In this document: positions 9,861 through 46,899 of the stretch, piece by piece | Layout: every line of letters begins with the position of its first letter | How positions within the stretch are numbered: position 1 is the stretch's first letter | NCBI GenBank assembly: GCA_965649765.1 | Contig: OZ287751.1 | Span: 65,782,001 to 65,846,000 of the forward strand | Source of the DNA: Bispira polyomma | Lineage: Eukaryota | Reading direction: 5' to 3' | DNA: 64,000 nt | Position numbers and translations under genes: made by a program | The notes under the pieces: model-generated | Told to the model about the DNA's origin: nothing | What the model saw: the letters and a program-made list of their open reading frames with translations, nothing else | Database searches by the model: none

Positions 9861-10282
9861 TTGCTTTGTTTACTTTACACTGACTAGATTTTACTTTATG
9901 TTTCAAGAATAATCAAGTATCAATGTGTCAAGAATTAAAGGCAATGTTCCAACGTTTGAAGAGTGGAAGATAAAATAAAGGAAATGCAATAAAGTTACAT
10001 ATAACAACCTGTAAATCGATGGAGAACTATTTGTTGAAAACCAATTTATTCAACAAAATTCAAAACACATTTTTGAATAAATGTTCTGTTGACAATGAAA
10101 CAGAGAATAAATTGCAGGACGACATGTTAACAAGTATATTACAAACTTTCAAAGGAGAGCCTTGAAAAAACCAGGAAATCACACCCCATGTCAAGAGAGC
10201 CACAACCTGGTACAGAAAGTCCCTTTGGGGCACCTGGCCACCGGGAAGAGTTACAGTTCCCTAATGACGAAAAACATGTATC

Positions 10283-10930
10283 CAATAAGAAACCTCCCAA
10301 GGTTGGGAGTAAATATTTCAACTATAATGGGTTCAATTCGATTGTGCTGTTAGCCCTCGTTGATGCTGACTTCAGATTTATCTGGGTAGACATTGGCTGT
10401 AGTGGTTCCAGTTCTGATGCTCAAATTTTCAACCACTCAGAACTGAAAGAAAAGTTAAAAGACGGAACCATTGGGCTGCCCAGACCTGCACCACTGTTTG
10501 AGGTTGATGTCAACTACTTCCTGCTGGGGGATGACGCCTTTACCCTGAAGTTCTGGTTGATGAAACCTTATTCCAGGAGAGCATTGACTAACCATCAAAG
10601 GATATGCAACTACAGAATATCCAGGGAAGGGAGGGTCGTCGAGAATGCCTTGTGAATATTGGTCAGCAGGTTCTGGCTTCTACTGACAACCATGCCACAA
10701 CATCTTTTGGTGGCCTAAAACCTGACTTCATCCTGTGTGATATTACACAACATCCTGAAAAGCCACTACGGTAACCCATCCCTGGAGCACCCAAACCCTT
10801 AAGATGATCTGCCTGATCCTGAGGAGCATCTGGTGGGAGATCAACTGAGAAGAGAAAACCGAAATGCATCTAGAGGGGCGAAAGAGCAAAGGGATACTAC
10901 TTCATGAATGAGGGGGCAGTCCCTTGTTAA
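10283..10930 (+). pseudogene. PIF/Harbinger DDE transposase fragment (HARBI1-like, DDE_Tnp_4)
   Basis: PP..GS.YFNY.GF.SIVLLALVDA..RFIWVDIG..G..SDAQIF, LLGDDAF.L..WLMKPY, NYRISR.R.VVENA; 5' truncated with a premature stop. Confidence 0.9.
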
Positions 10931-14935: not shown

Positions 14936-16214
14936 ATATGTAATATTTGTGTGTAATATCGTAAAAACAATAAAACCTCTATTTAGTGAATGTTCTTGGG
15001 ACCGGGTCAAAAATCTTCACTACACAGAGGTGTTCTATTTTTGGAGGTAGCTAAGTTTAACAGCAATAACTCCATGAAACACATTTGTACACCTTTATTT
15101 TCAAGTAACATATAGATATGCACACAATGAAGCAATAATAAGTAAGCACATTTTGTGATACCAACATGTACACAAACATTTTGTTGTTTTCAGTGATACT
15201 TTAGGACTTCTTCTTAAAGTAATCTATCAGAGTTGACCGTTTTGGACTTAACTATTCAATAGTGAAAATATACTGTATTAGTAGGCTTGGGATCAGGGGT
15301 TTACTGTTCATAGACATGTGTTTACTTTTCAGAGGCAGGCTTTACTTCCTTTGAATAAAATTATGATATGATATTCTTGTAAACCCACTTATTTTCAGTA
15401 GCAATTATAATTATATTGAACACAAACATAAGTACCTTGTATCTTACCAAAAGAAGTTGTTTATCTTGCAGAAAATAATTTTTTTCTTGTGAAGAAACAA
15501 AACATGATTCTAGATGCTACAAATATTTGCGTTTACATTTAAAGTACATTTCACAAATAAATGATTACACACATTATGTACAACTTTTATTAAAAAAAAC
15601 AACAACTACATAAATTACATGTGTGTACATCATCTTCTTGAACTAATCAATATTGTCATGTGTGATAAAAGCTTTAATATTCACTGTGTATGAAAATTTT
15701 GAGATATTTTGTTTTTAGATAAAGAGAGACACAATTTGAGGTAATCCACATTATTTTTCCTTTAAGAATTTTTTATATCTAATAAATCGAAATGATCATG
15801 TGTAACACACACTGTTATACAATAGATTTAATAATTGGCCTTTGGGAAAAATTATATGTAAGAAGCATAATAAAATAAAGGATAAATATTTTGATTTGCA
15901 GTGGTGGGATTCAAGCTTTAAACCTCTCAATCACAGCAGGTTAAACAGCAACTGATTGCAATCATTCATAAAGACACTGTAACTGAATTAAATATATACT
16001 CAACCTTTATTATATGAACATGTCGGAAGGGAAATATTTTTGTTCATATAAAAGAATATTAATATAATACAAGAGACATCTGTGCAAAAACACTAGGCAA
16101 ACATAAATTTGGGAGAGCAGAATTGGCTTCATGAAATTGAATTTATGGATAACTGAGGTTTGGATAACAAAGGTTCTACTCTAAATACAGATGTAGGAAT
16201 GAATTTAATCTCTA

Positions 16215-16670
16215 TATATTGGTTCTTGATAATTACACAATGCAGCCCAACTTGGAAAGATTTTACCAAAGAAATAGGCATTTCACCAGTAAATATTCTG
16301 TAGGTCTTCAATCGCCTTATAACTTGTTCTACAAGAATTCTGGAATTTGTTGTTTTCTTTGTTTTGGCCACAGCTTCTGTTGGCATTTGAATATCTCTTC
16401 GAAGACCTGGTGGAACATCTAATGAGATCAGTCTTGCTTCACATTCAGTTATCTCTTTATCACTGACACGCCCACCATAGGCAGGAGAAAGAAAAGTTAT
16501 TTCAGAGTTTAGTGCAACAGCAATGAGCAATTTTACCGTGTTGTGGTGTTTGTAAGATGACAAGCAGCATTTTGAAGAACAGGGTCGTTAGAAGTCTTAC
16601 TAAAAACCTCTGAGCAATCAATTATAGCTCTAACATTTGGAAGCCTGGGAAAACGACTTGGTTTAGAAGC
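16215..16670 (-). pseudogene. ISL2EU transposase, C-terminal (DDE_Tnp_4) half
   Basis: VRAIIDCSEVF, SSYKHHNTVKLLIAV..ITFLSPAYGGRVSDKEIT, RILVEQVIRRLKTYRI motifs. Confidence 0.88.
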
Positions 16671-16840
16671 TCCGTTCCCCGCCGTTGAAAACTAAGTTCG
16701 ATTATCTGACAAGTACACTGCCTTAGGATGTAACACAATAAAAAGACTTGCGGCAAAATTTATAAGTGACTGGCATGTTAATGACTACTTTGTATATGTA
16801 CAGTTTCAGCTTTTAGATTTGGACATAAGGTCAACTTAAG

Positions 16841-19682
16841 CTGTTTTCTTACAGCTTAGTGAACTGTAACTAAGCCTTATTTCTGTAAACACTGATAAAT
16901 ATTCTATACTTAAAAAAAGTTTTGCTTGAAACTCATCAAAACCATTATGTTTATCACACAGGTTGTTCTTATAGGTATTACTTCTCCTTGACGTTTTTTT
17001 ACTTGCATACATGTACACTTCTTTTTTTATATATAACTTTTGTACAGGGACAGCTTTATTGGAACTTTTTATGTTGTTCATTATAAGTGATGCTAAATAT
17101 GATTTACACATGCACCATGAATGTAAAACATGTAGTTTTTGCAGTAATTCTGGAGATCAAGAATCTGAAATAACTTTCTTTGATACTAGTTCTGTGTTGC
17201 TTTATGGAGACTCCTTGAATACTTTTAATGGTGTTCGGTGAAGAACTTGTAGTAGTATCAGCAAACTGTCAGGGTCTTCAAAACAAAAACAAACGTACAA
17301 AAGGTGATAAACCTCGAGAACTTTTGAAGAATTGGCGTCCGATCTCTTTGCTTTTGGTACTATATAAACTTGCCTCTGCAACAATTGCAAACCGTTTAAA
17401 GAAGGTACTAAATAAACTTATTTCAAAATCCCAAACTGGATTCATTGGCGGAAGGTTTATTGGGGAGAGTACAAGACTTGTTTATGATATCATGCATTAT
17501 ATTGAGAAGAACCATTTACAGGGTCTACTTATGCTTGTTGACTTCCAAAAAGCATTTGACTCAGTCTCATGGGGTTTTCTGTCAAATGTACTTGATTTCT
17601 ATAAATTTGGAAAAAGTTTCTGTAAATGGATAAATGTCTTAAACAAAAATGTAAAGGCATCAATTCTCCAATCAGGTTTCTTGTCGAAGTTTTTTGACAT
17701 GCAGAGGGGTTGTCAACAAGGAGACCCTATAGCTCCATATCTATTTCTACTATGTGCTGAGGTTTTATTTCTCATGGTTGATAATAACATAGGCATTAAA
17801 GGAATTATAATCAACGAACATAATTATAAAATCACACAGTTTGCTGATGATACTACAATATTCCTTGATGGAAGTAAGAACTCTATTGGCAACATTGTAC
17901 ACCCTAGAAATCTGTGGCCCTCTATTTGGACTCAAAGACTCAAAGTGAACACTGATAAAACCAAAATAATATGGCTGGGGAAAAAGAAACATTGCCACGA
18001 TAAGTACAATACTTTAGAGAATTTGAACTGGGGCTCCACTGATTTTAACTTGCTAGGAATACAATTTTCTGTGGACTTAGAATACCCACCATGAATTTTA
18101 GTCCAATCCTAAATAAAATTAATAAAATTTTAAACAGGTGGAAAAGAAAAAATTTGACACCACTTGGTAAAATTACTGTGCTCAAAACTTTTGTCATTAG
18201 TAGCCTAAATCATATAATTGCTTCCCTACCATCTCCTGATAAACAAATATTAACTAGTTTAAATCGCTTACTTTACTCATTTTTTGTGGGATAACAAGCC
18301 CAATAAAATAAGCCATAACCAAATTACAAATGATCACTTGCATGGAGGACTAAAAATGATAGATATAGAATCTTTCATAACATCTCAAAAACTCACCTGG
18401 ATGAAATGTTTGTTTCTATCATCAGAAGCATCTTGGGCTAAGCTTTTTTCAACCATATCAAATCCAGAAAAATTATATTTTATGGGACCTCTCTGGCCTA
18501 AAATTTTATCAAAAAGGATTTCCAACCCATTTTGGAAGGAAGTTCTTCTAGCCTGGGCTAAGTTACTTGGGCAAATTACATTTAATCAGGGTGATGCTAT
18601 ATCAAGTCCTATGTGGTATAACTCAGTAATTTCTATTGAACCTTTATTCCTACCACACTGGTATTATGCAGGAATATGTACCCCATTGGGTCTTTAAAAT
18701 CATGATGGTAGCATTATGGAGTTGGAGCAAATATGCCAATTATATAAAGTGAAAACCAATTTTCTAGAATATTTTAGAATTAAATTATGTTTAAAAAGTT
18801 TTCTGGCTAAATTTAATATGAAGAAATATCCTTGTGACAGACTGATCTTTCCTCCTTATTTGTAGTCGGCATTTTTATGAATTATTGAATCAGCAATATG
18901 ATAACTATCAATTGAGAAATAGATGGATTGATACTATAAATACTAATATTAGTAAACAAGATTGGGCCAATATTTACAAAGTATGTTTTAAAACCCTAAG
19001 AAGAAATTATTTTATTTGGTTTCAATACAGAATTATTCACGGAATTTTGGGTACAAGGGCTTATTTAAACAAAATCAATGTAAATATTAATTCCTCTTGC
19101 TACTTCTGCAATATGTATACTGAGACAATAATCCATATGTTTACTTCTTGTCCAGTGGTTAATCAATTCTTGAATGACTTAAAATCTTGGCTTCAACAAT
19201 TCTTTGGTTTGTACATAGATCTAAATCCAATGGGTATAGTGTTTGGTTTATTGGAGACGGAAGGAGATTTTCCCCCAACAATGTTGTTTTTATTGTGGCA
19301 AAAAAGTATATATTTGGATGTTCTAGAAATTTAAAACCTTTAAATATGTTTGGTTTCCAGAATTATTTCAGAACTATATATATTGACCAAGAATATATAG
19401 CTAAAACAAACTACCAGCTTGCCAAGTTTCAAGCAACTTGGTCTGTGTTTAATAGAATAATAGAGAGCTAATTTACATTTTTTAATCTCCTAATTAACTA
19501 AAACTTTTGACGTATTCACATGTAGACTTTTATGATTGCTTTGCATGTTGTAAACTCACTTTATTTCTAAACTGAATCCCTGCTCATGAGTTTTTACATA
19601 TTTTTATTCTTTTTGTTTTGAATGTACATGTATGTCTTTTGTATATATGTTATAAACAAAAAAAAAAACAATAATAAAAAAA
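16841..19682 (+). mobile_element. 5'-truncated L1/Tx1-clade LINE with poly(A) tail and 8-bp TSD
   Basis: ORF2 motifs NWRPISLL, DFQKAFDSV, QGDPIAPYLF, QFADD, C-terminal CxxC..ET..H...C; A-rich tail ~19655-19684; AACTTAAG duplicated at 16833-16840 and 19683-19690. Confidence 0.92.
17228..19471 (+). pseudogene. L1/Tx1 ORF2 (reverse transcriptase), frameshifted, with endonuclease domain deleted
   Basis: Fragments 17228-18094, 18091-18294, 18284-18697, 18885-19334 and 19187-19471 are collinear pieces of ORF2. Confidence 0.92.
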
Positions 19683-19990
19683 AACTTAAGTAAAACACCT
19701 TTGGATTTAAGGGTGCCATAAGGTCAACTCAAATTTAAGTTAAGTTTTGTATAAGGTCACCTTATATTCAGATTGTTTGCAAAAGGGGACAAAGTAAGGA
19801 GACCATAAATTATCTTAGGGGCAGCATAAGGTGACGCCAACTTAAGTTTAAGAAAAGTGTTAATTTTGAAGGTATGCGAGATAAGGAGACCATATGTTGG
19901 CCCTAAGTTGAGTTTAAGCATACTCAAAGATATGCACTAATGAAGATTGACTCTAAATGAGAACGTTATGTACTTGAGGTTAGGTTGACC

Positions 19991-20974
19991 TTATGGGTAC
20001 ATTATGTACTTTAGGTTAGGTTGACCATATACCCCAACCAGGCCCGCCTGAGCTGAATCTGTGATATACCTCCACACACAATCCGACATCCAGGTGCCAT
20101 GACGTTGAATGTCCTGAATGTTCACGTTATCAAATGCAAACGTGGCACCTGAACGTCGAAAGAAGTGGAATGTCAGATTCGCCTGGTGGCAACCCAGCAG
20201 TTGGAGGACATTCTTCAGATGACGTTTGACACGAGTGTCAGTCAGGGGCCCCCAAGAACTGCCAACCTTGAACTGAAACAGTGGGGCATTACTACCAGAG
20301 GGAGTCAAGGCTAGGACATTTCTCAAGGCTTGTACAGGACACAGGCTGGAATTAGGGATAGCTGGAAGTGTCAACAATCTAATAGAATTGTTTGTTTGCA
20401 TTGTTTTAGACCATTTAATAAGTAACATTACATAACCTGGCTTAAACAACACATCCCCCTGTGCTAAGTGTTTCAGGGGAGAATAAGCCACCACAGAGTG
20501 GGGACATAAATTTGACAATCTTAGAAAACTGAAAAAGCTGGGTAAACAAACTGGCTTGAAGATTTGTCCCATATACGTACAATCACATTTAGCAATTAAT
20601 GCTTTCAGCAAAGGAATGTCAAAAATACTTCTTAATTTTGCTTGCAGGGGTCTATTGACTGCAAGAGCCCGATTGAAATATGAAACCCTAGGATCTGCAA
20701 AGCAGTCCACATTTACATGATAAAGAATACATTTAGACTTCACAGCTGACAAGTAATTTACCATTTGAGCAGACGACACAGAGTTATAATTTAAAAACTC
20801 TAGAAAAGACAAAAGTCTGAATACATTCACCTGAGTAGGAAGCCATTCCATGAAGGCCCCAAAGGCGATGAATATCTTGAACATGTTGTCGTAAGCTCTG
20901 GTTGTGGAAGCAGCAAAGGCAGAGTGTAGCCTCTGACAAGCTCTACTTGTAAGCAGTGAATCGACAGGGTGCAT
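19991..20974 (-). CDS. Tyrosine recombinase of DIRS-type element #1 (open, 327 aa)
   Basis: Catalytic signature: R (FLRLSNL), K (KWSKT), HxxR (HFFRRSGAT), HGTW, Y (VWRY), plus CPV.AL. The last ~15 residues probably read into non-coding sequence. Confidence 0.93.
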   Translation of the reverse strand: MHPVDSLLTSRACQRLHSAFAASTTRAYDNMFKIFIAFGAFMEWLPTQVNVFRLLSFLEFLNYNSVSSAQMVNYLSAVKSKCILYHVNVDCFADPRVSYFNRALAVNRPLQAKLRSIFDIPLLKALIAKCDCTYMGQIFKPVCLPSFFSFLRLSNLCPHSVVAYSPLKHLAQGDVLFKPGYVMLLIKWSKTMQTNNSIRLLTLPAIPNSSLCPVQALRNVLALTPSGSNAPLFQFKVGSSWGPLTDTRVKRHLKNVLQLLGCHQANLTFHFFRRSGATFAFDNVNIQDIQRHGTWMSDCVWRYITDSAQAGLVGVYGQPNLKYIMYP

Positions 20975-21009
20975 GCCTAAAATATTTCAGAGACAACAAA
21001 TAATACAGC

Positions 21010-22540
21010 TTTAAATAGTCCTGTCTATACGGGATCTTGGGTATGTCCAGTTTCTAAAACACTGACAACCACTTGGTTATCACACTTAAATAGCACCTTT
21101 TTTCCATCCAGTCCCTAGACCAAAGTTGAAGGGCCACAAGGATATTTATCATTTCCACAGAAGCTATATTGTTACTAGTCATATGGCTTGGTACATTCAA
21201 CTCATAGACTTGATTTCCACAAATGCGTCCCATGCCAGTTAAGGAGGCATGTAACTCAATTTGGGTGTGTATAGGTATATGGGATTAAGAAGGTCACGCC
21301 ATTAAACTGACTTACAAATGTGGTTAACCAATTAAGGTCCTGTTTGAATTCCCGTGTTACGCTGAATTTCTCTTTACCATAATTATAACACAGTAGTTGC
21401 AACATTCTGTTTAAAAACACTCAAGCATATTATATGCACTTTGCAACATAGAGTAATGAACCCAATAGTGATTGCAGTTCCCTTTTTGTGCACTGGGTCT
21501 TAGTTCTCCAGCTAGCACACTTTTCCCTGATTTCCGTTAATTTATCATCGGGAATAGAATTTGTGAAATCTTCTGTGATTACCATGATTCCCAAACAGAT
21601 AGCCTGTGTATTGGGGCCCACTAATTTTTGCTACTAACAGTTAAACCAAGTTCAGATAATAAAACCTGGAACCATAAATGCGCCCAAATTTGCTGGGTAG
21701 ATTAACGGCTAGGAAATCGTCCATATAATTGTGTATATTATAGCCCTGTGACATCATGATAAATCTGACTGTGTCGGATAATCGTTGGAATATAGTGCTT
21801 CCGTTCTGATAGCTGAATGGAAGACACTTATCAACATAATAGTTCTTCCATTGTAGGCCTAACAAATTTATATCACCCGGGTCAATAGGGACGTGACGAA
21901 AGGCCCTACTGATGTCCACTTTAAATATCTTATAACCTTTGCTAAGTCTAATGACTTCATTTCCTATATTATCAACCGACGGGTAAGACAGAAGAAATTC
22001 TGTTTTCAAATAAGAAGTGGCAGACACCCCTGTGTTTACTGAGTGGCCACGTGGCCAACTCAAATCTACTATTACACTCATGTTGGTAGAACTTGATTTA
22101 TCACGGGTCATCATTGGTGAACAATGTGGGTCTTTAGTAGGTGGTTTAGTAAAAGGTCCTAATATGGTCCCAAATTGACACTCGTTCCGCAAATATGTAT
22201 CTACATGTTCAGGGAACTTATCCGATGAGCTATCAGTTACATTCTTGGACTAACTAATATTGTCCCGTGTTACATCCAGAGGGAACCCATATTTGACTAA
22301 GAGGGGAAGTTGCCAATCCCAGTATTGTTCAAGGTAACTTGCCCATTTATCAGCATTTAATTGCGAGGACACGGCCAGTTGTAAACCTTTGTAATTGTGC
22401 CTGCCATATGCGCGCAACTTTTAATGCAATTGAAATATGTTAAGTCTGTGACTAGTGGTACCATTGTCCCCCACTTTACAACCAAGTGTTGTAAGTGGTG
22501 TGAAACCATAATGCACCTTGTTTTGTTTTTGCCATTCATT
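21010..22540 (-). pseudogene. RT and RNase H of DIRS-type element #1, frameshifted
   Basis: SPMMTRDK, VIVDLSWP.G.SVN, FKVDISRAFRH, CLPF, NYMDDF; LQSLLGSLLYVAKC; RNase H motif EMINILVALQLW..KCDN.VV. Confidence 0.92.
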
Positions 22541-23330
22541 GTAAGTTTTTTATTTTGAGCCTTATTTCAAAGTTCTCGTTTGTTTTTCCTCTTCTTTAAT
22601 TGTAAAGCATATCTGTCATTTGACCTAGTGGTATTTATGTGTTTTTTGTTTACAACTACCTCCTGGCCGCTTTGTGCGACCCAAATTGTATTGTCCTGAT
22701 TTAACTTTGTAACTACTTGTTGGGTTCTACTACTTTTATACTCAGTGTCCCCCTCAGTATTTGCACCCCCCCCCCCTCCCCCCCATTGTTTTTTGTTTTC
22801 TGTAATCTCTGTTTGGTCAAGGGGCCAAACCTATTGTGGAGCGCGAGTCCCGAGGTAACACCTGCCAAAGTGTCTTTATTAGCACTTTCTTTTACTATTC
22901 TCGGCCTGCCCTGTTGTTTCCTTTCACAAGTGTTATGTTTATTTTGTGTCGTAGAAACAAAAGGGGAGGGCAATTGTCCAGAACGTTGACACCTAAATCT
23001 TTTTGAATGCCTTTAGATGTTGCTGCCTGATTTACACGTTTTCGTTCACGGGTTGTAAATACATCCCTTTTATTAGTACAGTTTGCATTCTTAAAACTTG
23101 TTTCGACTTTCTGAAACATTAGTACGTACACAATTACGGTGGTGTTTGCTATTTACATTTTTGACAGCCTGGCTATATGTACAGCCAGTCTGTCTGCCTC
23201 TACAATATACAATCTTTACATAAGATTTTGTCCCGATTTTGTTTGTCGAATAACTGTAACTCCTGGAAGCTAGAGTTATAAAACACCTGACTAAAAACAG
23301 ACTTGTCCACTGCAGTTAAGCAGTAGCCAC

Positions 23331-24336
23331 TTAGTTTTTTTAACTCTTTTTACTGCATGTGCTACTTTTATGTGTGCTCTCACATGCCTCACAAACGTTC
23401 TTGAAGTAAGTACTGTCCGTCTTATGGCTGGTAGGATACTTACAGGTTCCCTCTTGGAAGAACTTGCAATTAGCTGTGGTTTGTTTAGAATTTTGACTAG
23501 TTTTGTTAGCACCACGATTACTGACCAGCACTGATACTAGTTACGTGTCTTTGCACATGTGCCCTTCTAAGTCTATCAAGCTTATGTACTTCCGACTACT
23601 TGAGCTTATCCATTTCCATTTGAGTCAAAACCACAGCGTGGCTAGCTTTTGCAGCCTCCCAGGAGAAATCCTCCGAGTCCTCCATTAAGTTGGACATGTA
23701 CTCTAACATCATTTCCTTAATTTCATTACACTTTTCGTGTTGTACAATTCTAGTGAAACCACAAACCCACTGAGCGATAGAGAGGTCATCATAAGTGGGT
23801 CTTGTTCGAAAGTTACCAGTTAATACATGATTCTGTGGCAATTCGACCACCTGTTTAACAATGATATCAACACCCCCGCCCCTTTGGGATTTTAGTTTAC
23901 CTTGGCTAGGACTCTCATTTATTTTTTTGAGTTCAGCCAAACGCAACTCGACCTGACTTTGTATCGGGGTATTTGTGCATAGAAAATCTACAGTGGGTAT
24001 TACATTTTCTGGAGCCGAGGCTTCAGAATTACCATTCACAGAACTACTACTGGTACCAGTATGAGTAGAATTACTTTCCTGATTTTTGCTGTGATCTCCC
24101 GCCAACGCTGCTTCAGTAAGTTGAACACGCTGATTGATCCGTTCCATTATGGCACTCATTGTAGTAATATTTGGTTTAGTTACCCCAATATCTGTAGCAT
24201 AGAAGTCAACATTGGATTGATCAATGTGTTCAGCGTTGGCAGAAGATCCCTCACTAGCAGTTGCAAGTGTACAGGCAGCACCAACGTGCCTGGCATGTTT
24301 TCCAGAGCATTTTGAACAATTGAACACCGGAGGCAT
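23331..24336 (-). pseudogene. Gag-like ORF1 of DIRS-type element #1
   Basis: N-terminal CxxCxxxH..C motif; GKLKSQRGG; YDDLSIAQWVCGF; DFSWEAAKASHAVVL; C-terminal Cys/His fingers. Open to 23596, then disrupted. Confidence 0.85.
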
Positions 24337-24584
24337 CGTAACACACAATATTTAAAATAGTTAAAGTTTAAAATGATAAAAGCAGTAACAAATGTAAATT
24401 AAACATAAAATTTCACGGAAAATTTTCGCTTCTTGTTTCAAAGTTGTTGTTCTGTGAACATCTATTGTTTAAAAGGCAGGTGCATTTAAATGGCTGGCCT
24501 TTTATAGTAGCCGCATTCATTCAGGCGTTACAAATAGACTGGTACCCCAGAACTGAACTCGTCGGTGCTAGGACGCAGCCTTAT

Positions 24585-25345
24585 AATTATTGCTTCTTTC
24601 CTTGCTCACTTCACCTGTTTACCAAGAACTTTGGGCATAGTAGATACCAAGTATAAAATATTTGTTGACATAATGTCATAGAGATACCAAATCTCTGCTA
24701 AATCTCCATACAAAAGTCAATGTAAGTAGGAATTCTTCCTCACTTCTAAATTTTTTTTCAGGTCCAAACTTTTTAGGACTCTTGCTTGAAATTTATTACT
24801 TTGGTGGAAACTCTCTTTATTCCTCTTCACCTTCTACAGACCATTGGCGAAAGACAGTTATGTAATTGTGTAAACAAAGACTTTTTGAGCAATCCTGGTA
24901 TCTTTCTCATATATCAATACACTGTTATATAATCTGCTTTTAAGAATTTTTTTTTAGTAGGAACTTTTGGTGGTGTATTTCTGAGTTTCAATTTTTCTTT
25001 CTGCGATTACTGTCTTTGCATTTCAGCTTCTGCACAACAGCCAAAAAAAAGAAATATTATTACCCTTGCAGGCAGTGGACAACACCAAGTTCTTTTTCCC
25101 TTGGTTCCTTGATCACTTACTTGGATATGACTCACAGGTGACTCGAAAGATTCTGCTAATTTCCTTCTTTTCATATGTCTCTCTATTCTTCTTTCACATT
25201 CAATCATTTGTCTCTTTGGTGTACTAGTAATTGGGTTGAGATACAATTCTGGAACGCTGGGTGCGCTGATGTCGGCTCAGTGTCAATAAAGTGGTAAGAA
25301 CATACCACATGGTTGTATGTTGGCTGCAACCATTTATGCGGTATA
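24585..25345 (-). pseudogene. ISL2EU transposase, N-terminal half (THAP finger and HTH_Tnp_4)
   Basis: W.P....VVCSYHF....P....P THAP motif (~25250-25335); EEEFLLTL and LA.RFGIS....QIFYTW HTH motif (~24640-24745). Confidence 0.8.
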
Positions 25346-25733
25346 TATATATATATATAGTAAGAGATGACAATTTGAGAACCCCACAAAAATGCGGAGT
25401 AATTAAGGGACAATTTAATTGATGTAATTGTCTGTCTTTTTAGTTCTGTAATTTGTCACCTACTTGTCCACTTGTTTATATATGTTTGTTATAAAGGGAC
25501 AATTTAAGAAGGTTTAATTGTATACCTCTGACCCGATCGATATCCTCGATCTTGCTTAATTTAATAAGGTTCCAGACAGGTTTAATTAATTTTATATGGT
25601 TCCAAATGGCCCCAGACTAAATACTTAAATAGTTTTCATGTTAACAATATTACCATTAACTTCATAACACAAGTGTACCAAATTCCCCCTCCCGCTCCTC
25701 CATACTGTTATTTGCTGTTTACTATGAACTTAG

Positions 25734-25851
25734 ACCAAATAATCTGTCCCTATTTAGGGTTTTGCTTATGGAGGCCGTTCTGTCTCTTTTCGTGATGCCA
25801 TCATCAAAATAACTGCAAGGAATCTCCCTAAATAGAGACAGTTTATTTGGT
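25734..25851. mobile_element. Small MITE-like element with 26-bp terminal inverted repeats
   Basis: ACCAAATAATCTGTCCCTATTTAGGG ... CCCTAAATAGAGACAGTTTATTTGGT (2 mismatches). Confidence 0.7.
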
Positions 25852-26194
25852 ATACTATAAAATATGCTACGCTTATGTAGTTTATAACAGCTATAGAAAA
25901 ATCATTTTATTTCCATTAAATTCCAAAGATAGCCATATTGCTGGGGTTCATCTTGTTATAATAGAAGGCATCCAAGTTGAATAATTGTAAAAAATATAGA
26001 AATAACAGGATTGATGAATGGGCGAAAATAAAGGATACTACAAATCGCTATAAAAATATAGTATTTTATGCTAAATTAAAAGATGACACGTCATACCACT
26101 TGGTCAAAATAGACTTAAATCCTTTGAAATTAAAAAGTCTGAGTGTGTGGTGTTTTCAAGATTTGACAGACGTGCCCCTGTATGATATTATATG

Positions 26195-29100
26195 TTAGCA
26201 GGGTCCACCATACTGCAGAGCATACAACAGCCAGGGGTGGGTACAATTAACCTTAGGAGGGGGCCAAAAAGGTAATGCTGCAGGGAAAATTAAGTCAAAA
26301 AGGGGGGATGGGGATATTGATGTGGTAGTAAAAAACAAGTTTTGCTGGCCTCAAGAGGCTATACTAGGTGGCACTACCAGGCAATGTATATCCTATGATC
26401 ACCTGTCATTGACCCAGTGTGTCCAAGGTTTTAAGAAAAATATTGTAGAGGAGCACGACTCTGACAAAGAAAAAATGTTGTACATGTCTGATTTAATGGA
26501 TCTCGTGGCAAACTGCTAAAGCTGTGCAGGCAGTACTTTTATGTGATATGGAGAGGGGGCACTAAAATAGGAAGATTCCCACAGAATGGATCGCATTCGA
26601 AGGGCTTATGCCCAAAAACATATAGTACCAACCAAAAATAACTGGGGAAAAACTACTGATGCTAATCGCAAGCACTGGTATTGTAAGCCCTATAGACTGG
26701 TTCATGCAGCCAGACAAAAGATCACGAGAACGGGGGTAAAATTCATAAACATATATGTGCGTCTTCCCTGGGAAGAGGTAGGTGAGTGGTCATCCATAAA
26801 AGAATTGTATGTGTGGTAAAAAAATTTTCCATTCGAAAAACAAGTAGCCAGCTGCTCAACGTTCTTTTAAAAGGGGGGCAGCAATGTAAATAGCAGAAGT
26901 AACACGGGCCTTCCACGCAAGGCAGAACCAAAAGTGGTGGGTAATGTAGTGAAGAAAAAACAATGTGGTGTGTCATAATAATGTTGGTCAAATATGCCTT
27001 ACACGAGGTGTAGCTCAAAGGGGTGTTAAATCCAACAATCTCAGTAACATATCACCAAGTCAAAATAGGGCTCAGGTATGTGAGTTTTATAGAACTAGAT
27101 GTTCTTATAATTCAAACAAGTCACACAAACAAGTAGAAGCAGTGTTAGCATGTAAAATAATGACTGGGTCAGGTGTATGCATTCCCAGAGGGGACAAGTC
27201 AGTAAACAAATTATAACACACAACAGAAAAAAGGGGTTCTTCCAAATTGGCAAAGGCCACAATAAACAATGCATGTGTCACCGAGATGGTTGTAAAACAA
27301 ACGGAACCTCTAGTGGTTACTACAAATAGTAGTGATGTAGTAAGTAGGTGTACTGGGGGGAGTGCACAAAAGACAAAACAAGGGGAAATACAATTATCCC
27401 ATTGTGTGGGCGGGAGTGAAAGTCAAGAACAATACACGTGTCAAACTGTCTGCGAAGTAAGTGGGAAAGGGACTGAAGAGGCTGATTGCAATTTAAGTGG
27501 GACAAAGGGACATTACACAATAGCTAGTTAATTGAAACAAGCCCTTTGTTTGACATTAACAGACATGAGCATGACGACAAGTTTGTTCACTCCATTCTCT
27601 ACAACAATAGGGACTTGACGGGACATGTAGACAAGTGTTAGTGCACGAATTGTGGCAGGAGCAAACACTTTAATTATGGCTTTGTTCCTCAATCAGGGGA
27701 CCATGGTGGCCTAGTGGTTGGCAAGCATTGCGCTTTAAAATCACTGATCTCTCACCTCTTGGCGGCGTGAGTTCGAATCCCGTCGATGCCTATGTGGGAA
27801 AAGTGGTAGTTCCTTACTGTGGGCCGCTGGTTTCAGTGCAGAACCTTGATCAACTGTATTCAGTGTTTCCTCCAGCGTTTCCAACTACCCGTCCCAATAT
27901 AACCTAAACAGGTACTAGAGTGGACGTTAAATATCCAAATTCAAATTCAATCTATGACCATAGAAATGCTGACTTTGTCTTATAAAGAGACGCTTTCCTA
28001 ACAGGGTTGGGGGCAGATGGAAAAACTTGGTATATCATCTTGGACTAGACAGGGGTTACAAAAATTTGAGTATAGTGCCCTTAGAGATGATTAATATTCT
28101 GTTGACACTAAGATTATTTTATGGACAGTGGACTGGGAAAAGAGTGTTGATAAAGTGTGACAATGATGCAGTGGTAAAGGTTCTGCAATCAGGCAAGGCT
28201 AAAGACCCCTTCCTGGGGGCCTGTGCTAGAAATGTTTGGTATCTAACTGCTTTGGTAGATGTGGCAGATCTACATTACATACATGTGTTAGGAAAACTTA
28301 CTGTCTAGATGGCAAAATGCTGTTGAGAATAACAAAATTGTTAATATATGTTGAACAGCCAGTAAGGCTTCCAGTGTCGGTTGACATGTTAGAACTAGAT
28401 AACGATTTATAAGATATTAAGTTTAAAACCTAGAACTAATGATACTATACTTTGTTGTAGGTGACAATATGCTGGCCAAACTTTCTGGTCAGTCGAGTGC
28501 AAGACTGCAGAAGGCATTTCGACCAAAGACTCAGCAGCGCTAACATGTTGTTTAAAACATTTGTGTCATTTTATAGTTATGTAAAAGTTGAGTTGTCCGA
28601 TATTAACCTGGAAGTAGTGTTAGCCTTCTTGGAATGCCTGGTGGTTAGTGGAGTCCACATGATAAGTGATTATATCTCAGCCATAAAGGCAAAATGTATA
28701 ATGCATAACCTTCCTTATCAATGCTCAGACCAACCCAAGGTAAGATACTTGTAAAAGCAGTTAGGATAAATAGGCCAGTGACAGTAACTCGCAGAAATAT
28801 AATGGATGTACTGTAAAGATTAATTCATTATGTGAGCAAATACATCAAGGCAAGGTCTACAAGGCTGTGTTTTTACCAATTTTCTTTGTTTTTTAGGGTC
28901 TCAAATATTGTGACTGATTCATTACAAACTTTTGATAGTAACAGGCATTTTAGCAGGTGGGGATATTTTCTTCACTAGGTCTATTGTCAAGGTTTTAATA
29001 AAATGGACCAAAACAATGGAAGACAGAAATAAGGTGACTCACACCTTTGCCCATAAAAAGCCCTGCGTGATGTATTTCAGCTATATAACCCTCAACAACA

Positions 29101-29770
29101 TGAGCCCTTATTATAGTGCAGAACTGCTGCAGGTTGGCAAGTGCTAACGGATACCTGACGTTCAGGTGCTACATTTTCTTCTACTGCAAATGTACCAATA
29201 CAACTAATTAAATATCATGGCACCTTGACATCTGATTGCGTGTGGAGGTACATCCAGGCGGATCAAAGCTTCGGGAGCAAGTAGCTCGTTCTTTTCATTC
29301 TATATTAGCATAATGGCTATATAAATGCAGCACTACACTACTGTTGGGCTTGAGGGAAATTTTACTGTTATGTTATGCTATTACTGTTCATTAAATTTAC
29401 TTACTTGTCAATATATTCAAAATTATGCACGTGTTAATGTTACCTTAAATTGTATTATTAAATGTTAAATCAAGGAAACATTAAGGTCCCCTTAAAGTGA
29501 CGTTAAACCAACCTTAACTAGAAATATTGAGTGTGAAGTTAAGGTTACCAGAAGACATAATGTACCAATTAAAGGTTTATCAGTATACATAATGTACTAA
29601 TTCAATGTGTATAACTAACTTAACATGTATACTTCATGGATCTGTAAATGTATTGTAGTAGTAGTAGCAATAACCTAAATTTTATGTATAATAAAATAGT
29701 AAGTTCAATTCATGTGTTTTGAGTGTTCTTCCCCTAGGGTTGGTGGGGCCTGTCATATTCTTGCAACTAA
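26195..29770 (+). mobile_element. DIRS-type YR retrotransposon #2, degenerate, RT deleted
   Basis: Gag (GKIKSKRG, WPQE.ILGG, YDHLSLTQCVQGF) 26200-26847; RNase H (LEMINIL, KCDNDAVV) 27955-28410; YR (RL..AF...T, IKWTKTM, HGT.TSDCVWRY) 28461-29310. Ends are approximate. Confidence 0.88.
27696..27948 (+). mobile_element. tRNA-derived SINE
   Basis: A box TGGCCTAGTGG, B box GTTCGAATCC, (AAATTC)n tail; near-identical to 32787-33038. Confidence 0.92.
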
Positions 29771-29952
29771 AAGCGCCATTTGAAATTTATTGAGGAAAGT
29801 AATTTTGTAAGCAGGTGGGTAATAGAGCTGCTTTAAAAAAGTTTGTGATGTTATTTGAGATGTGTACTGATAGTGTTTTTGTAATGTCTATAGCTTTCAG
29901 TATGTGTTTAGAAAAAAAATATTGGCTCTCGGGTAAAAAAGGCCTTCTTTCT

Positions 29953-30190
29953 GAATTTGAATTTATTGGGTTTTATGTTGCTTTGAACAGCTTAGATCAT
30001 ATCCAGGTCATTAGCTTAGGTCATGACGTGGCCAGATTCAACAGTGGAGGAAACCAATGCAATAGCACTTTAAATCGCTGCACTATGCCTAATACCTAGC
30101 AAAGTTTGCCACACAAAAGAACAACCCCTACTAGTGAAAGACCAGTGATTTTGAAGCCAACACTTTAAATCACAAGGCCACAGCGGCTCC
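29953..30190 (-). mobile_element. Diverged tRNA-derived SINE
   Basis: Reverse complement starts GGAGCCGCTGTGGCCTTGTG..AAATCACTGG and ends in an (AAATTC)n tail, like the 27696/32787 family. Confidence 0.65.
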
Positions 30191-32786
30191 TGTTCAGAAT
30201 ATATATACCTATCTTTTTGAAAAAACATAGGCTTGTTTGCATTCCAGGTGATGGCCACATAAATACTATCCTCCATTAAACTTGAGACATCCATGACTGA
30301 CCTGACAATTGCCTTGCCATGGTCAACACATATTCCTCAACAAATCTGCAAAATTCACAGCTCACGTTTTGAAAATCAGTTTACAACATGTAAAAAGTTT
30401 TATACTCTGTGATGAGGAATTTACACAGATTCAGTTGTACACCTGAAATTAACTTTGCCTGCTAATAAATACGCACATGCAAATCATGCTGCAATGACAC
30501 TACCTTTGCATTCCAGATATTAAGGTTGAACATCACTCTAATGCTTTTGGCAATTGTCATCATGGTCGATATTGATGTTTTCCCACATCCAAGCCCATCA
30601 CACACCTGAAAATTTATATGCTATTTGTCCTTGATATGCTTTAACGTAGAACAATACTCTTTAAAAGTGACTCTGATTCACAAACCTTACATTAAAATGA
30701 ATGTGGAAGACTATCGTTTTACAAAACACTGACCCACCTCCAACATTATTCTGAAGATGCCTCTATTAAATAAAATTACATTATCACAGGGATCTGTCCA
30801 AGAAATAAAAATTTAAAGCGATCTTATCTCATTGTGAACACTTTTTTTCTACACTTGATACATTATTATTAAGCTTCCAAATGAGTATTCAAAGCATGTG
30901 TGGGTTTACTGGTGACTCAACAGGATGAAGTGGCATGTTGTAGGACTTCTAGATTGGCATGTTTACTTTACTTGATGAAACCATACTTTTAGAAAAAAAC
31001 AAATATGATATTCATCTGGCTATTTGCTAGTTTTGTATAAATTAACCAAATTAGAGTAATTCATGAGTAATTGTAAAGAGTTAATCCATTGACATTTGGA
31101 ATTAAGTTGTTTTTTTGTAATATTATTTTATGCTGCAAGATTTTCAAGAAATTAGAGAAAAGGAAATTATGTAGTAGCTCTTTTATTAAAATTAAAACAA
31201 ATTTTATCTGAATCAAGAACTTGATCTTCAAGGATATTGCAGAAACTGGTGCTGTTGATAATGTGTAAGATCTTGGAAGTTTTTAACACATAACTGGAAG
31301 TGCCCAAATTGAATGTCATTCCTTTCTTTATTCGTTCTTGTGGTTTTCTTTTTTTAACATTACTAAACAGTGGAACCATAGAAAGTGCTTTTCTTTAAAA
31401 TACACAGCCCACCTAAAATTATTTCACATTGCCAAATATATGACTTATATTTTAAATGTAAAAAAAAACAGTTTGGAAATACAGACGTAAATAAGTACCT
31501 TTGAGTTTAAAGGATTTTATAAATAAACCCTTTTAAGGAGGCTTGCGGTAAACCCTTTGGATGGTGTACTAATATATTGAATATAGGATATATATATAAA
31601 AAAACAATAATTTAGGCCAAAAAAAAGTTGTTGCGGATATTTTTATTCATCAGTTTACAACCATTTAGTTTAGAATTTTTTCCTCAAAATCCCTGCCTTC
31701 CACTGAGTATCATTCATATCTTCTCGAGTATCATGAAATACACCGTACTCAGCTAAAGTGGTAAAATAATTAGGTTAACAGTTTGTTTATGTCGTCTTTA
31801 AGATAATACATTTCTATCAAAAAGGGCACCTTTCAGGGTTTGCTGTATTCCGTCCTAAAGTGCTTGTAAAATATTGGTAATTTTATTTTTCGTCACTACA
31901 GAGAAAATCTCCATTCTGGGTCAGTAGATATCATTTGTGTATCCTTAAAAGAAGTAATTTGTCAAGAACTGACATCCTGTGTAAACACAGAAGACTGAGT
32001 AAATCCTTATCACTGTTGTCATCAAGGTTCAATACAGTAATATTAGAAAATTTTGCTATTTTCAGAGATGTTGAGATCTTGTTAATATAACGCATGAAAA
32101 TGTGAAACCTATATGAAAAATGGTATTGCACCCTTATGATGAAATGTGATATGGTGTATCTTCACATAATGTTACACATTTTTTTTTTACTTAACTCCTG
32201 CAAACTGTATATATGAGAAACTGGTACTTTTATCAGAAACATATGAAGTTCATTCACCTGAAGAAATAAATTACATTCTGAAGCTAAAGAAATTGTTGCT
32301 AATTTTACAGTCAAAATATACCCGAATAAATGCATCATTATGTCTTTTGTCATTTTACTTTGAAGGCTCCATCCATTAAAGGTTTTTATGCTTTCCAATT
32401 TGAACTTAAAATAGGAAATGAGAATGGGTATGTATTTTGACGAAACCTTGACATAAATTACAATGGTGCCTGGAAATCAATGCAAGAGGTAAACTGTCCT
32501 ATTCAGATTGACGCGTACCTTTTGTGCACTTGGTGACTTCTAGCGAATCTAATTGGTATTTGCAAATGTCAGATGTGGTTTCAATAATATATTTTTAGCA
32601 TCCCATGCTTTATAACAAAAATAATTATATTGCATAAAAATCAACTTACCTAGTCCTTACATTGCTTTAGTTTGTGGCCGCCACCTGGACCAAGGTCATA
32701 TAGTCAAAAAAGCTATCACCCTACCCTAGCCTGTGATTCAGTGGTGTACTTATGTTAAAAACCATAACTATGTCAAGTACAAAGCA

Positions 32787-33038
32787 GGGGCCGTTGTGGC
32801 CTAGTGGTTAGCAAGCATTGCGCTTCTCAATCACTGGTCTCTCACCTCTGGGCGGCGTGAGTCGAACTCCCGTCGATGCCTATGTGGGAAAGGTGGTAGT
32901 TCCTTACTGTGGGCCGCTGGTTTCAGTGCAGAACCTTGATCAACTGTATTCAGTGTTTCCTCCAGCGTTTCCAACTACCCGTCCCAATATAACCTAAACA
33001 GGTACTAGAGTGAACGTTAAATAGCCCAATTCAAATTC
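32787..33038 (+). mobile_element. tRNA-derived SINE with ~12-bp TSD
   Basis: Same family as the 27696 copy; flanked by duplicated AAGTACAAAGCA. Confidence 0.93.
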
Positions 33039-33834
33039 AAGTACAAAGCAGGTGTAAAGATGACCTCCTTTGTGTCCTTGCAATATTTTTGAACCCCGCT
33101 GTGTACACTTTGTATGAATTATTTTGTGAAGCTTTCCATTTTGGATGGAATTATGGCTGAAGAGAAGTGCTACAAAATGATGTTTTGCAGAATTTTAGTT
33201 CTTTTAGGAAGATTATGAATTTAGAAGTTTGCTTTTTTTTAACACAACAGGAGGGTCCAGTCGATCTTGTATCTTCTTATGTACCAATAGACATTTTGTT
33301 TACAATGCTATGTACCTAGCAATATAGTGGGGCGTATTCGATTGTTGTGCTCTTTCTCAGCAAAAAGTGATCTTTTTGTCATCGGAAGATTCTGGACTGA
33401 GGTCGTCTTCATATAAGTTTAATGCAGTTCTAGCACTTCATTGGAGAGCAAGTTGGAGCTAATCGCCTTAAAGCCCCGATTTTTGAAGCCATAGAATAAA
33501 AGCTCTTGGAAAGTCATATCGTGGAGGTGTAGCATTGAAATTCTTTATGTAAGAACTAAGTAAGTATTTTTATTAATGAAAATTCCAATTCTAATAAAAA
33601 ATTTAAAGTTGCTTTAGGGAATTAAAAGGTGTCAATTGTCAACCAATTAAGTCTGTGTTGTTTGATAATGCATTTTATGAGTTATGGACATGTTAAAACA
33701 CCAATAATATCTCCTTAAAAAAACTCTAAAATATATAACACTAAACCTATGCCTACATGCATCAGACTTTTTTTTATCCCAGAACTTACAATGCAGCAAC
33801 TTCCATGTGTCAGATGAGATCACATGTCCGAAGA

Positions 33835-34670
33835 ATCTTTAGATTTTTCTGGTCAGGGAGCAAAAAAAAATCTGCAAATCTGGTTACTTTTGGGGGTATT
33901 TTACGGCAGTATGTATTTTGTCTTACTCTAATGGTGATATTTCTCACAATTAGCTTCATGGATTTAAAGTGGGGTGGATGAGGTGTAACTCTATAAAAGA
34001 CTGCCAACACAAACCTAAGACTTATAAAAACTCACGATCTGTAATCTTAAAATGGAATGAAGCTTTAACTATATTCCATCAATTTCAATGAGGATTTTTT
34101 TGCCCAGGGAGCGAAAAAACATTGGAAAATCTGGTCAATTTTTGGGGGGTATTTTGGGGCAATATGTATTTTATCCTAGCTTACGCTTCCTTTCAGCATG
34201 TTTTTCTCGGCCGATTTTTTCCCTCATTACACAATACTACCAAGTGCTTCCTTTCATCATATTTCTAACAGATCAATCATCGGACATCGGGCGACGACTG
34301 TTAGACCAACATAGTTTATCGGTCAGGGTGTGAAAAAAATCAGGAGTTCTGTACGATTTTTAAATAAATATTACAAAAAAAAGTTATTTTATTTTACATA
34401 GAACATATCAGATGAAAGGAAGCGCTACATTGGCTGATGTCGAATGAGCTCGGACACCTACAAATTCGCCGACGTCAGAATTTGCTGAAAGGAAGCATGG
34501 GCTTACTCTAATTGTGATAATTCTCACAATTTGCTTTACAGATTCAAGAAAGGGTGGATGGGGGTGCAGCTCATATGGCCATAAAGGGCAGCCAACAAAA
34601 ATCTGAGACTAAATACTACATCAAGGTCCATAATCTCAAAAGGGAGTCAAGCTTAAACCCAGACTCAACT
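33835..34670. repeat. Two diverged ~260-bp tandem units, the second interrupted by a MITE (34178-34503)
   Basis: Repeated aatctgg..ttttgggggtatttt..tatgtatttt..ttactctaat..gtgat..ttctcacaatt; inverted repeat GCTTCCTTTCAGCA (34185-34198) / TGCTGAAAGGAAGC (34483-34496). Confidence 0.7.
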
Positions 34671-44250: not shown

Positions 44251-45672
44251 CTAAACGGAATTAGTATACAATAACTGCATGAATTGCTACAAGGTCATAA
44301 AAAAGACAGCTGCATATGTGTGTGCTCAAACTGCAATCTATAACTTAAATAAGGCGGAAAAACTGGCTAGAATGAATGTTTTCTGTGTTGGTATATAGAA
44401 CATGTGAAAAACAGTTTTCGTTAAACCATAGTTGCTACAGCTGGACAGAAAATCAAATGTAACACTAACATTATGGATTATTTGTCAAGAGAGAACAAAT
44501 GATGATCTAAGATCATAAATATATACAACAACAGCATAAAAACAGACGAAAATAAACCTAACAGAATTGTAGACAGCAAATTAAAAGGTTTGTCAGTTAT
44601 TGCTCAATTTCCAAGAGGATTGCACCCCATTTGTGACAAATGCATTTCTTAATGGAGTTATTGAGGAGAAAATATTCACTGTGGGAGATGCTTTAAGCAG
44701 AGTCAATTAGATTTTCAGGGCAAACCAGGGGAGCTTGTGAGGGTGTGGGGGAAGGGGGAAGGACGGACCAAAGAAGTGAGAGATAGAGAATGAGGGGGAG
44801 AAGGAGATTTGGGTGGAAATAGAAACTTTCTGATCCACCAGAACATGTCATTGCAATTTTCAACAGTTAGGTGGCAGGATGTACTGACAGACACTTTGTG
44901 AATTGCAACTTAAAACAGTTTAGCACAGAGCTTTCTATATAAGATTGATGTGACGTTATCTTGTACATTAATTTTATATGTGTTACTTTCATATTTTAAC
45001 TAAATGAGTAAGAAGTAACAAATTCACTGCATCAATAAATAGTTAGCTTGTGACTGGCTGTGTATTGTGTAATACATTTATGGAACAGCTGCATTTAAGG
45101 GAAAACAAAAGATCATTGTACATTGAGTAATCTGGATATATTCTCTCTTTCTGTGTTTGTGCGAAAGTGATTGTCAGAGTTGAAAAGGTATCAAGTAAAA
45201 CTATAGATATTTCTGTTTTTGTTTTGGGTTTCAGTCCATTGTCCAGAGCACTGGATTATGTGTGGGAGGTGTATTTTTCCCAAATGCATGCCTTTTAAAT
45301 ATGATGGCAAAGTGTGTCTCTGTGTAAAGGTGATAACCTTGAATTAAATGTCTTAAAATTCCTTTCGTTGGAAATGATATGACATGTTTCTAGGAAAAAA
45401 TGTACTAATTAATGTGGGGAAAAAGCGGCCAATATAACAGTTATTATGATGCAGACTGGGAGAAATATATTTGCATAATCAGAAACATATTGATAATCGG
45501 TCTTTGATCTGTGTGATAATTCTTACTTCATTTCTCAATCTGGCAGGTGATGAATGGTAACATTGCCATGGACAGTTTAAACCAGATAGAAACTATATGT
45601 GAACTAAGATAACATGTGTGTTAGTGTTAAAAATTACCCTGTTACCCAACCTGGCATGTGGTAAATGTTGAC

Positions 45673-46899
45673 ATGGACAGTTTAAACCAGATAGAGGCTA
45701 TCTTTCACCACTACATTGTTCCAGTAATATGTGGCTTTGGCATGGTGTGCAATGTACTCAATCTGGCAGTGTTGTCCAGGAAACACATGAAGGATTCTCC
45801 ATACTCCTACCTGATGGGCTTGGCAGTGGCGGATCTCTCTGTACTCACACTGTCCTTCATGCACAATGTCTTCTCCTGTCGCATTGGTAGAGGATTGTTT
45901 GCTTGGCAGGTATTTGATGCCTACGTGTACCTACCATTTGCTAATGTGTTTGCCAACGCATCTGTATGGATAACCGTGATGCTGACTACTGAGCGATGGA
46001 TCAGTGTGAAGTTTCCTCTTAAGGCCAAGGAGATCTGCACACGGTCTTTGGCCAGAAAAATAATTGTGACGACATTCATACTTTCCTTAGTTATTAATAT
46101 CCCAAGGTTTATGTGCCAGAAGGTGGAACAGAAAGGACAGGAGTACCAAACCAACTCCACCTTGTTTGAGAGAAGTGCATTTTATAAAGGGGTCACCTGG
46201 TTTTACGTCTTTACCATACATATCATTCCACTTCTACTCCTCGTCTCGCTGAATTCCTGCTTAATAGCTTTGGTCTACCAAGCTGACCGTAGACGCAATG
46301 CCCTTCAGGTGTCCCACCGACAGATGAGAGAGGAACATGCTATCATCCGTGAGCAGACAAGACTCACTATCACCTGCATCAGTATCATCGTATTGTTTTT
46401 AGTGTGTATCATACCTTCTGCTTTTTCAAACAGACCGGTGGCATATGCCCTGTTTGGGGGTGATAAGACAGTTGCTAATTTCTTAGATACCCCTTTCTAC
46501 CATGTGTTAAAAGTCATCACCAACACACTGGTGTTTTGTAATCTATCCTTGAACTTTGTGCTGTACTGTGTGTTCAATAACAAGTTCAGGCACACTTTGC
46601 GGTATCTCTGTAGGGATTGTATGCACCGCCTCATCCACAAGGGTGAGCAGAAAGAAAGACGCCGGCTTTCCAGACGTTCTAGCAGTTCATCCAGTAGCTA
46701 TGTCCGTGGCACCAATGCCCATGGTTTCAGGAGGTCCACCGGGAACTATATCCCAGGAGGGACTACATCCCAGACACTGATGTTCTGTCATGCAGAGGCT
46801 TACCCTCTCACCAGGAGTATGTACCACACAAGAAGAACTGGGTCACGGAGACACCGACTGGAACTAACCAGTGTGTCCGAGGTTTCTGATGCCATCTGA
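45673..46899 (+). CDS. Class A (rhodopsin-like) neuropeptide GPCR, FMRFamide/sex-peptide-receptor-like, coding region intronless as seen
   Basis: Seven hydrophobic segments; GxxxN in TM1, YLMGLAVADL in TM2, ERW at the DRY position, NFVLY..FN.KFR in TM7/H8; Ser/Arg-rich tail. First in-frame ATG at 45673. Confidence 0.93.
   Translation: MDSLNQIEAIFHHYIVPVICGFGMVCNVLNLAVLSRKHMKDSPYSYLMGLAVADLSVLTLSFMHNVFSCRIGRGLFAWQVFDAYVYLPFANVFANASVWITVMLTTERWISVKFPLKAKEICTRSLARKIIVTTFILSLVINIPRFMCQKVEQKGQEYQTNSTLFERSAFYKGVTWFYVFTIHIIPLLLLVSLNSCLIALVYQADRRRNALQVSHRQMREEHAIIREQTRLTITCISIIVLFLVCIIPSAFSNRPVAYALFGGDKTVANFLDTPFYHVLKVITNTLVFCNLSLNFVLYCVFNNKFRHTLRYLCRDCMHRLIHKGEQKERRRLSRRSSSSSSSYVRGTNAHGFRRSTGNYIPGGTTSQTLMFCHAEAYPLTRSMYHTRRTGSRRHRLELTSVSEVSDAI

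Follow-up and report, generated by a model that had tools for sequence, protein, structure and literature searches.

Predicted splice sites in element 1

We analysed a 64,000-nucleotide stretch of Bispira polyomma DNA (GenBank assembly GCA_965649765.1, contig OZ287751.1, forward-strand positions 65,782,001 to 65,846,000), referred to here as the window and numbered from its first letter. It carries two decayed copies of a retrotransposon with a tyrosine recombinase (YR), elements 1 and 2. A preliminary description had proposed that element 1 makes its recombinase from a spliced RNA that joins the N-terminal part of Gag, in frame, to the YR. Element 1 lies on the minus strand. A TATA-like box (TATAAAAG, 24499–24506), recognized by eye and putatively the promoter, precedes the gag ATG by 160 nt. 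Predicted exon 1 extends from this ATG at 24336 to 23901 (436 nt, or 145 codons plus one base) and encodes the Gag N-terminus, with a CxxCxxxH motif and two predicted helices. It ends at a candidate phase-1 donor, AAG/GTAAAC (23895–23903), whose GT (23900–23899) interrupts the Gly codon of Q-G-K-L-K-S-Q-R-G-G after its first base. The rest of gag and pol come next, followed by a T-rich, AG-free tract that closes with a phase-1 acceptor (20977–21008, AG at 20978–20977). The YR ATG begins two bases after this AG. Predicted exon 2 covers 20976–19991 (986 nt: 2 bases, 327 codons and the stop), and its YR portion (20042–20976) shows zero breaks against its relatives, on which PF00589 is recognized; the R, HxxR, H/W and Y motifs, which we take to be those of the recombinase, are all present. 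The putative intron is 2924 nt long. Both the donor (CCAAG/GTAAAC) and the acceptor (TATTTTAG/GCATG) are exactly as first described, in position and phase, and the stop-free exons, matching phases and CxxCxxxH motif of element 1 were likewise reproduced.

Splice sites were scored with approximate matrices, a limit that weighs against the splicing proposal, as does the rank of the acceptor, only 30th of 282 AGs; its tract is AG-free for 32 nt, the preceding AG lying 32 nt upstream. The donor at 23900 ranks third of 230 GTs and is the best of the 21 phase-1 GTs in the stop-free part of gag, where it is almost tied by the GT at 23816 (7.27 vs 7.18 bits). Because its splice sites rank modestly, element 1 alone is not beyond chance. 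The strongest acceptor-like site of the element (9.6 bits) is at 23287 on the minus strand, just past the gag stop, in phase 0 of pol. A low-confidence model of element 1 Gag (51.4) has helices at residues 57–82 and 123–141, and the donor, placed after the last of these N-terminal helices, would be a plausible module boundary. The single-sequence fold of the YR (pLDDT, the predicted local distance difference test, 36.5) was too poor for use.

A candidate acceptor and start codons across YR relatives

Counts of YR homologs are among the 120 matches listed (165 further matches were unlisted), which are 41–60% identical to the element 1 YR. The relatives match PF00589 and integrase SAM-like domains, below curated cut-offs, and in the ESM Atlas the element 1 YR matches eukaryotic integrase-like clusters. 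An anchor Tyr is aligned in 73 of the 120, while 45 begin downstream of it and 2 have another residue there. The 23 homologs that reach at least 30 residues upstream of the anchor formed the acceptor test set. These database proteins appear to be unspliced open reading frame (ORF) calls, and their upstream extensions therefore translate whatever precedes the exon. The best back-translated acceptor is in phase 1 in 22 of 23 homologs, compared with 33–35% of control windows, and a [LVISPTA][GADEV] dipeptide occurs at −28..−25 in all 23, compared with 33–37% of controls. Their N-termini are rich in F, Y, L, S and V, as expected of a pyrimidine tract plus YAG read in phase 1. With 9 clusters each represented by its weakest member, the phase-1 signal gives a Fisher p of 1e-5 against YR-internal windows; against stop-free AT-rich DNA of the window, p is 1e-6 (9 clusters). 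The residues themselves vary (G, A, D or E after L, V, P, T, S or A), which points to a constraint on nucleotides and not on protein. Statistical inference from protein relatives thus supports a conserved phase-1 acceptor preceding the YR across the family.

The start codons are consistent with this. In 18 of the 23 homologs, a set biased towards Met-less proteins, the first Met lies at least 28 codons beyond the junction, inside the integrase SAM-like segment (mapped on P0207). Since these proteins have no Met until after the first conserved helix, the YR would need an in-frame upstream exon. Ribosome scanning to the YR past 69 upstream ATGs is implausible. A called M does appear just past the junction in 49 of the 73 anchored homologs; for 43 starts at this place, the corresponding residue of the nearest longer relative is L or V in 26 cases and M in 6, which suggests bacterial-style TTG/GTG start calls. 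On the same statistical footing, a YR that has no family-wide start ATG is supported.

Several points weigh against these two conclusions, the called M among them. The −28..−25 window was picked post hoc (the wider interval −32 to −22 also gives 22/23), phase-0 TAG acceptors are invisible in ORF-derived proteins, and many of the homologs seem to come from one assembly. One YR subfamily has a truly conserved Met near the junction, and an ATG follows the AG by 1 codon in element 1 and by 3 codons in element 2. The Met and the ATGs are what would be expected of a stand-alone YR translated from its own ATG, reached through a spliced non-coding leader or an internal promoter, with the T-rich tract as a spacer or promoter. 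T-rich acceptor-like stretches before some gag ORFs (P0180, P0190) also fit such an arrangement. With a non-coding leader no particular phase would be expected, but phase 1 is found in 22/23; an early Met is absent in 18/23, and the interval from the TATA-like box to the gag ATG of element 1 holds no GT above 2.8 bits. We consider a stand-alone YR quite unlikely. From their T-rich N-termini, P0180 and P0190 may belong to subfamilies with a 5′ leader intron.

The YR might instead be appended to Pol, as an RT-RH-YR protein (RT, reverse transcriptase; RH, ribonuclease H or RNase H), through a short intron, a frameshift or read-through where RNase H ends. P0206 and P0207 are RT-RH-YR read-throughs, and the YR ORF of fungal Ngaro elements can be in frame with RT-RH (PMC3783388; this and the other papers are cited for the portions of their text available to us). 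Both proteins are single-member clusters on genomic contigs; the acceptor-like stretch is still present in P0206, and the join in P0207 lies 7 residues within the usual junction. The RNase H tail of element 2 has a single listed donor-like site (28362), in phase 0, and stops occur in the YR frame just upstream in both copies, closing it at most 3 codons (element 1) or about 12 codons (element 2) before the acceptor. This arrangement is very unlikely. In P0207, RT-RH joins the YR at about the natural end of RNase H.

A candidate donor across Gag relatives

We examined the donor in element 1 and other Gags, 22 sequences in all, which are less than 60% identical to one another. Of 675 combinations of column and phase, the Gly column of [QKAP]-G-[KR] in phase 1 fits a donor best. 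A second comparison, conditioned on Gly, omitted element 1, 3 gapped rows and 4 rows that were frameshifted or had no Gly; in 9 of the 14 non-redundant Gags compared, the proposed Gly had the most donor-like flanks of any Gly in the protein (p 4e-6). Median scores at the other conserved Gly columns are −5.2 to 0.2 bits, compared with 2.6 at the proposed site. At the protein level, the G-[KR] site is supported as the best donor candidate in Gag. Two observations weigh on the other side. In the T-R-G-R subfamily, which is nearest to element 1, the site ranks 9th of 21 and 11th of 22, and the donor-like pattern could also reflect conservation of the protein, a distinction that needs DNA. The subfamily of P0135 and P0136 keeps Q-G-K-L and has no N-terminal CxxCxxxH, so the finger is not universal in Gag. 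In the ESM Atlas, the element 1 Gag N-terminus yields only leads below 0.9.

If the acceptor is real, it may be joined in frame to different or subfamily-specific gag donors (such as 23816 and 24254 of element 1 and 26272 of element 2). Several phase-1 GTs in the gag of element 1 score 5.8–7.2 bits, the GT of element 2 is displaced by 4 codons, and the T-R-G-R subfamily is poor at the proposed site. Against this, flanks are poor at the other conserved Gly columns, and no column scores above the proposed one; alternative donors are unlikely. A purely coincidental origin of the signals, with G-K/R being a protein motif and the T-rich spacer mimicking an acceptor, is highly improbable. It would accommodate the modest rank of the element 1 sites taken alone, the K/R exchange after Gly, which suggests protein constraint, and the fact that no product has been observed; it would leave the YR with no start codon, and the phase-specific, position-fixed signature in 9 clusters exceeds what stop-free window DNA gives (the p of 1e-6 above).

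Element 2

Element 2 spans about 26200–29315 on the plus strand, head to head with element 1 and about 1.9 kb from it (24336 on the minus strand to ~26200 on the plus strand). It consists of a gag fragment with 5 breaks (26202–26839), an RNase H remnant ending at a stop at 28410–28412 (27989–28412), a phase-1 acceptor (CTTTGTTGTAG/GT, 28434–28460) and a YR remnant with 10 breaks (28461–29315); no recognizable match to the gag N-terminus or RT of its relatives was found. The preliminary description had the same pair of signals in this copy, and half of that claim stands. The acceptor is present in phase 1 (AG at 28459–28460), ranks 4th of 240 AGs and is stronger than that of element 1. The donor is missing: the homologous Gly, in A-G-K-I-K-S-K-R-G, is encoded by GGG (26283–26285), a finding that counts against the proposed donor. 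The nearest phase-1 GT, at 26272, is 4 codons (12 nt) upstream of this Gly and ranks 10th of 235 GTs. We therefore rejected element 2 as an independent confirmation of the donor. A variable Gly codon had been named in advance as evidence that would refute the proposal, and it is seen in the sole DNA comparison, which involves this badly decayed copy.

A 254-nt repeat occurs twice, at 27697–27950 and 32787–33040, with 93% identity. It resembles a short interspersed element, with tRNA-promoter-like boxes by eye, and ARAGORN and Rfam returned nothing for it. One copy occupies the place where element 2 lost its RT. Across 15000–34000, Rfam gave 0 matches.

Searches for a fusion protein

The outcome of the protein searches also weighs against the splicing proposal. 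A Gag(N)-YR protein was found in 0 of the 120 listed YR matches of the near-length search, in 0 of 22 matches to the Gag N-terminus (1.84 billion representatives searched) and in 0 of 5 long matches obtained with a YR profile (469–2000 aa, 8000 candidates); 25 cluster look-ups contained no such fusion. Among 309 proteins, only a coral gene model, labelled 'hypothetical' by NCBI, has both domains, and it includes RT. Short ENA contigs with gag or YR, not identified as transcripts, run unspliced through both sites. The long matches, considered as candidate fusions, proved to be either read-throughs of RT-RH-YR or distant RH-YR ORFs, two of them tied to coral records, and P0245, another candidate, is a Gag running into pol.

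Ten pattern matches to related DNA in GTDB included none that was confirmed, tblastn against plasmids gave no match, and a PDB sequence search gave 0 matches. A bacterial promoter scan was set aside as inapplicable to this genome.

Decay of element 1 and a putative frameshift site

The C-terminal part of gag (23331–23900, minus strand) holds the conserved core and a Cys/His finger, with breaks at 23596, ~23520 and 23340. Pol (21025–23333, minus strand) has a long N-terminal region and decayed RT (RVT_1) and RNase H, with the RNase H tail missing. The element 1 copy is dead, with 2–3 breaks in the Gag C-terminal part and 9 in RT-RH. The YR had been described as a protein of 327 aa; the length of the ORF is correct, but it is not a whole recombinase, as similarity to the relatives ends at 20042. 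The last ~14–17 residues of the family are replaced by unrelated sequence (19991–20041, minus strand), a non-family tail in place of the C-terminal helix that contains a 36-nt tandem duplication.

The would-be intron has 11–12 breaks and the exons 0–1 (binomial p 0.002–0.017, post hoc). Conserved residues have been lost at 5 of 83 positions in the YR, 3 of 18 in the Gag N-terminus and 2 of 32 in the Gag C-terminal part. This counts against the splicing proposal: the exons lose conserved residues no less than the Gag C-terminal part, and hence there is no sign of selection on them. The asymmetry of breaks is suggestive, but it is post hoc and finds no backing in the residue losses; selection on the exons was set aside, and neither selection on element 1 nor its domestication is claimed.

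At the end of gag, a slippery heptamer, A AAA AAC (23334–23340, minus strand), could provide a −1 frameshift into pol, and the −1 frame of element 1 is open across it. Thirty-eight of 40 full-length Gag relatives, many of them closely related, terminate in K-N or K-N-x, matching this heptamer, which suggests a conserved −1 Gag-Pol frameshift. The RNA fold downstream of the heptamer in element 1 had no significance (z −0.96).

A cluster of short palindromes and of 13-nt repeats, both direct and inverted, occupies 19650–20040 on the minus strand, and this segment weakly resembles the 3′ region of element 2 (score 49, compared with a shuffle maximum of 40.5). A decayed long interspersed element (RVT_1, zf-RVT) occupies 17219–19700 on the plus strand, its A-rich tail adjoining the 3′ end of element 1. 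The window resembles an animal genome, with genes for a rhodopsin-type G protein-coupled receptor in a single ORF (45631–46899, plus strand) and, on the opposite strand, exons of an organic anion transporting polypeptide transporter (50384–50701 and 63185–63565). It also contains DDE_Tnp_4 transposase fragments (10131–10655, plus strand; 16129–16587, minus strand) and minisatellite arrays with units of 22 nt (55012–55877) and 21 nt (63683–64000).

Classification

Taken with their relatives, elements 1 and 2 show the constituents of the order DIRS, namely a gag-like ORF, RT/RH and a tyrosine recombinase, and lack a DDE integrase. By the layout criteria of PMC3266345 and PMC4157794, they are probably Ngaro-like YR retrotransposons; membership, judged by layout and with terminal repeats undetected, is probable and not proven. 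Ngaro-like elements have gag, RT/RH, a downstream YR, no methyltransferase (MT) and little ORF overlap (PMC3266345, PMC4157794, PMC9210276), and they are reported to be abundant in Lottia and Nematostella (PMC4157794). Here too the YR lies downstream in the same orientation, with no MT. The RH stop of element 2 at 28410 is only 48 nt before the acceptor, and P0206 and P0207 pass from RH to YR with no MT match. A search for inverted terminal repeats or an internal complementary region gave no 5′/3′ match above shuffles, the ends being decayed or interrupted, and split direct repeats (A1...B1A2B2) were not detected in either decayed copy. No downstream hydrolase ORF was noticed, although no search was aimed at one.

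DIRS1-like elements share Gag, RT/RH and YR with the elements described here, which differ in having no MT and no long pol/YR overlap (present in only half of the described DIRS1-like elements); nor were inverted terminal repeats or an internal complementary region detected at their decayed or interrupted ends. PAT-like elements of the echinoderm form, Pat1, share the Gag zinc-finger motifs and the downstream YR; PAT elements encode an MT (PMC4157794), for which the elements here have no room. The preliminary description had set the predicted splicing against the overlapping ORFs of DIRS1. That contrast is beside the point, given a Ngaro-like layout in which non-overlapping ORFs are usual (PMC3266345). 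Ngaro-like elements have the same layout as those studied here, and a spliced YR is undescribed in the available portions of PMC3266345, PMC9210276, PMC8547959 and PMC3783388.

Discussion

The sequence anatomy of the elements and the phase arithmetic of the two sites are direct observations. From these and from the relatives we infer the identity of the donor, the splice, the frameshift and the tethering role. Most likely, one promoter drives one RNA that is read in three ways. Unspliced, it would give full-length Gag; unspliced and shifted by −1 at A AAA AAC, Gag-Pol; and spliced between a phase-1 donor at G-[KR] in Gag and the phase-1 YR acceptor, Gag(N)-YR. The finger and coiled-coil helices of Gag would supply the YR with its start codon and could co-assemble it with Gag particles. 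That the YR is spliced in frame to some upstream exon is likely; for splicing from the proposed Gag donor in particular, we put the probability at roughly 0.6. Of the original idea of a Gag-tethered YR, the conserved acceptor, the missing family ATG and the best donor column have held up, and the splice event and its partner stay predictions.

Other systems offer partial parallels. In retroviral env and foamy-virus pol mRNAs, a 3′ ORF is reached by removing an internal gag/pol intron; a Gag segment of 145 residues is normally absent from these products, and integration there relies on a DDE integrase, not on a YR. The analogy with env splicing drawn in the preliminary description is loose for the same reason, as env usually lacks a stretch of Gag of that length. 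The plant Ty1/Copia element EVD likewise makes a subgenomic mRNA through host splicing (PMC5580714), but that splice yields Gag alone, whereas here the Gag N-terminus would be fused to the integration enzyme.

Spliceosomal introns have been noted in some fungal YR elements, and a prior mention of splicing in YR elements is possible. A spliced Gag-YR was not found in the literature covered, which includes the available text of PMC7192593, PMC6681497, PMC9940879, PMC2632668 and PMC12440569 and leaves out key reviews. How the YR, as a third ORF, is translated, and how the recombinase is delivered with no protease-processed Gag-Pol-IN, goes unexplained in the available portions of the papers covered. 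The spliced YR is probably a real, undescribed expression feature of a known element class.

With the element 1 copy dead, the interest lies in the family. It is tentatively proposed that a broad lineage of animal Ngaro-like elements has as its true integrase a spliced Gag(N)-YR chimera, with the finger and coiled coil of the Gag N-terminus replacing Gag-Pol loading of the recombinase. From a single RNA, −1 frameshifting would then yield Pol and splicing would yield the YR. ORF3, as annotated for the YR of these elements, would be short of its N-terminus; if the junction is real, YR annotations in the lineage are incomplete, and biochemical studies of the ORF3 product by itself would be done on the wrong protein. 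With the conserved in-frame acceptor, existing RNA-seq can be tested for one specific junction. A real junction would also make splicing a point of host control over these elements.

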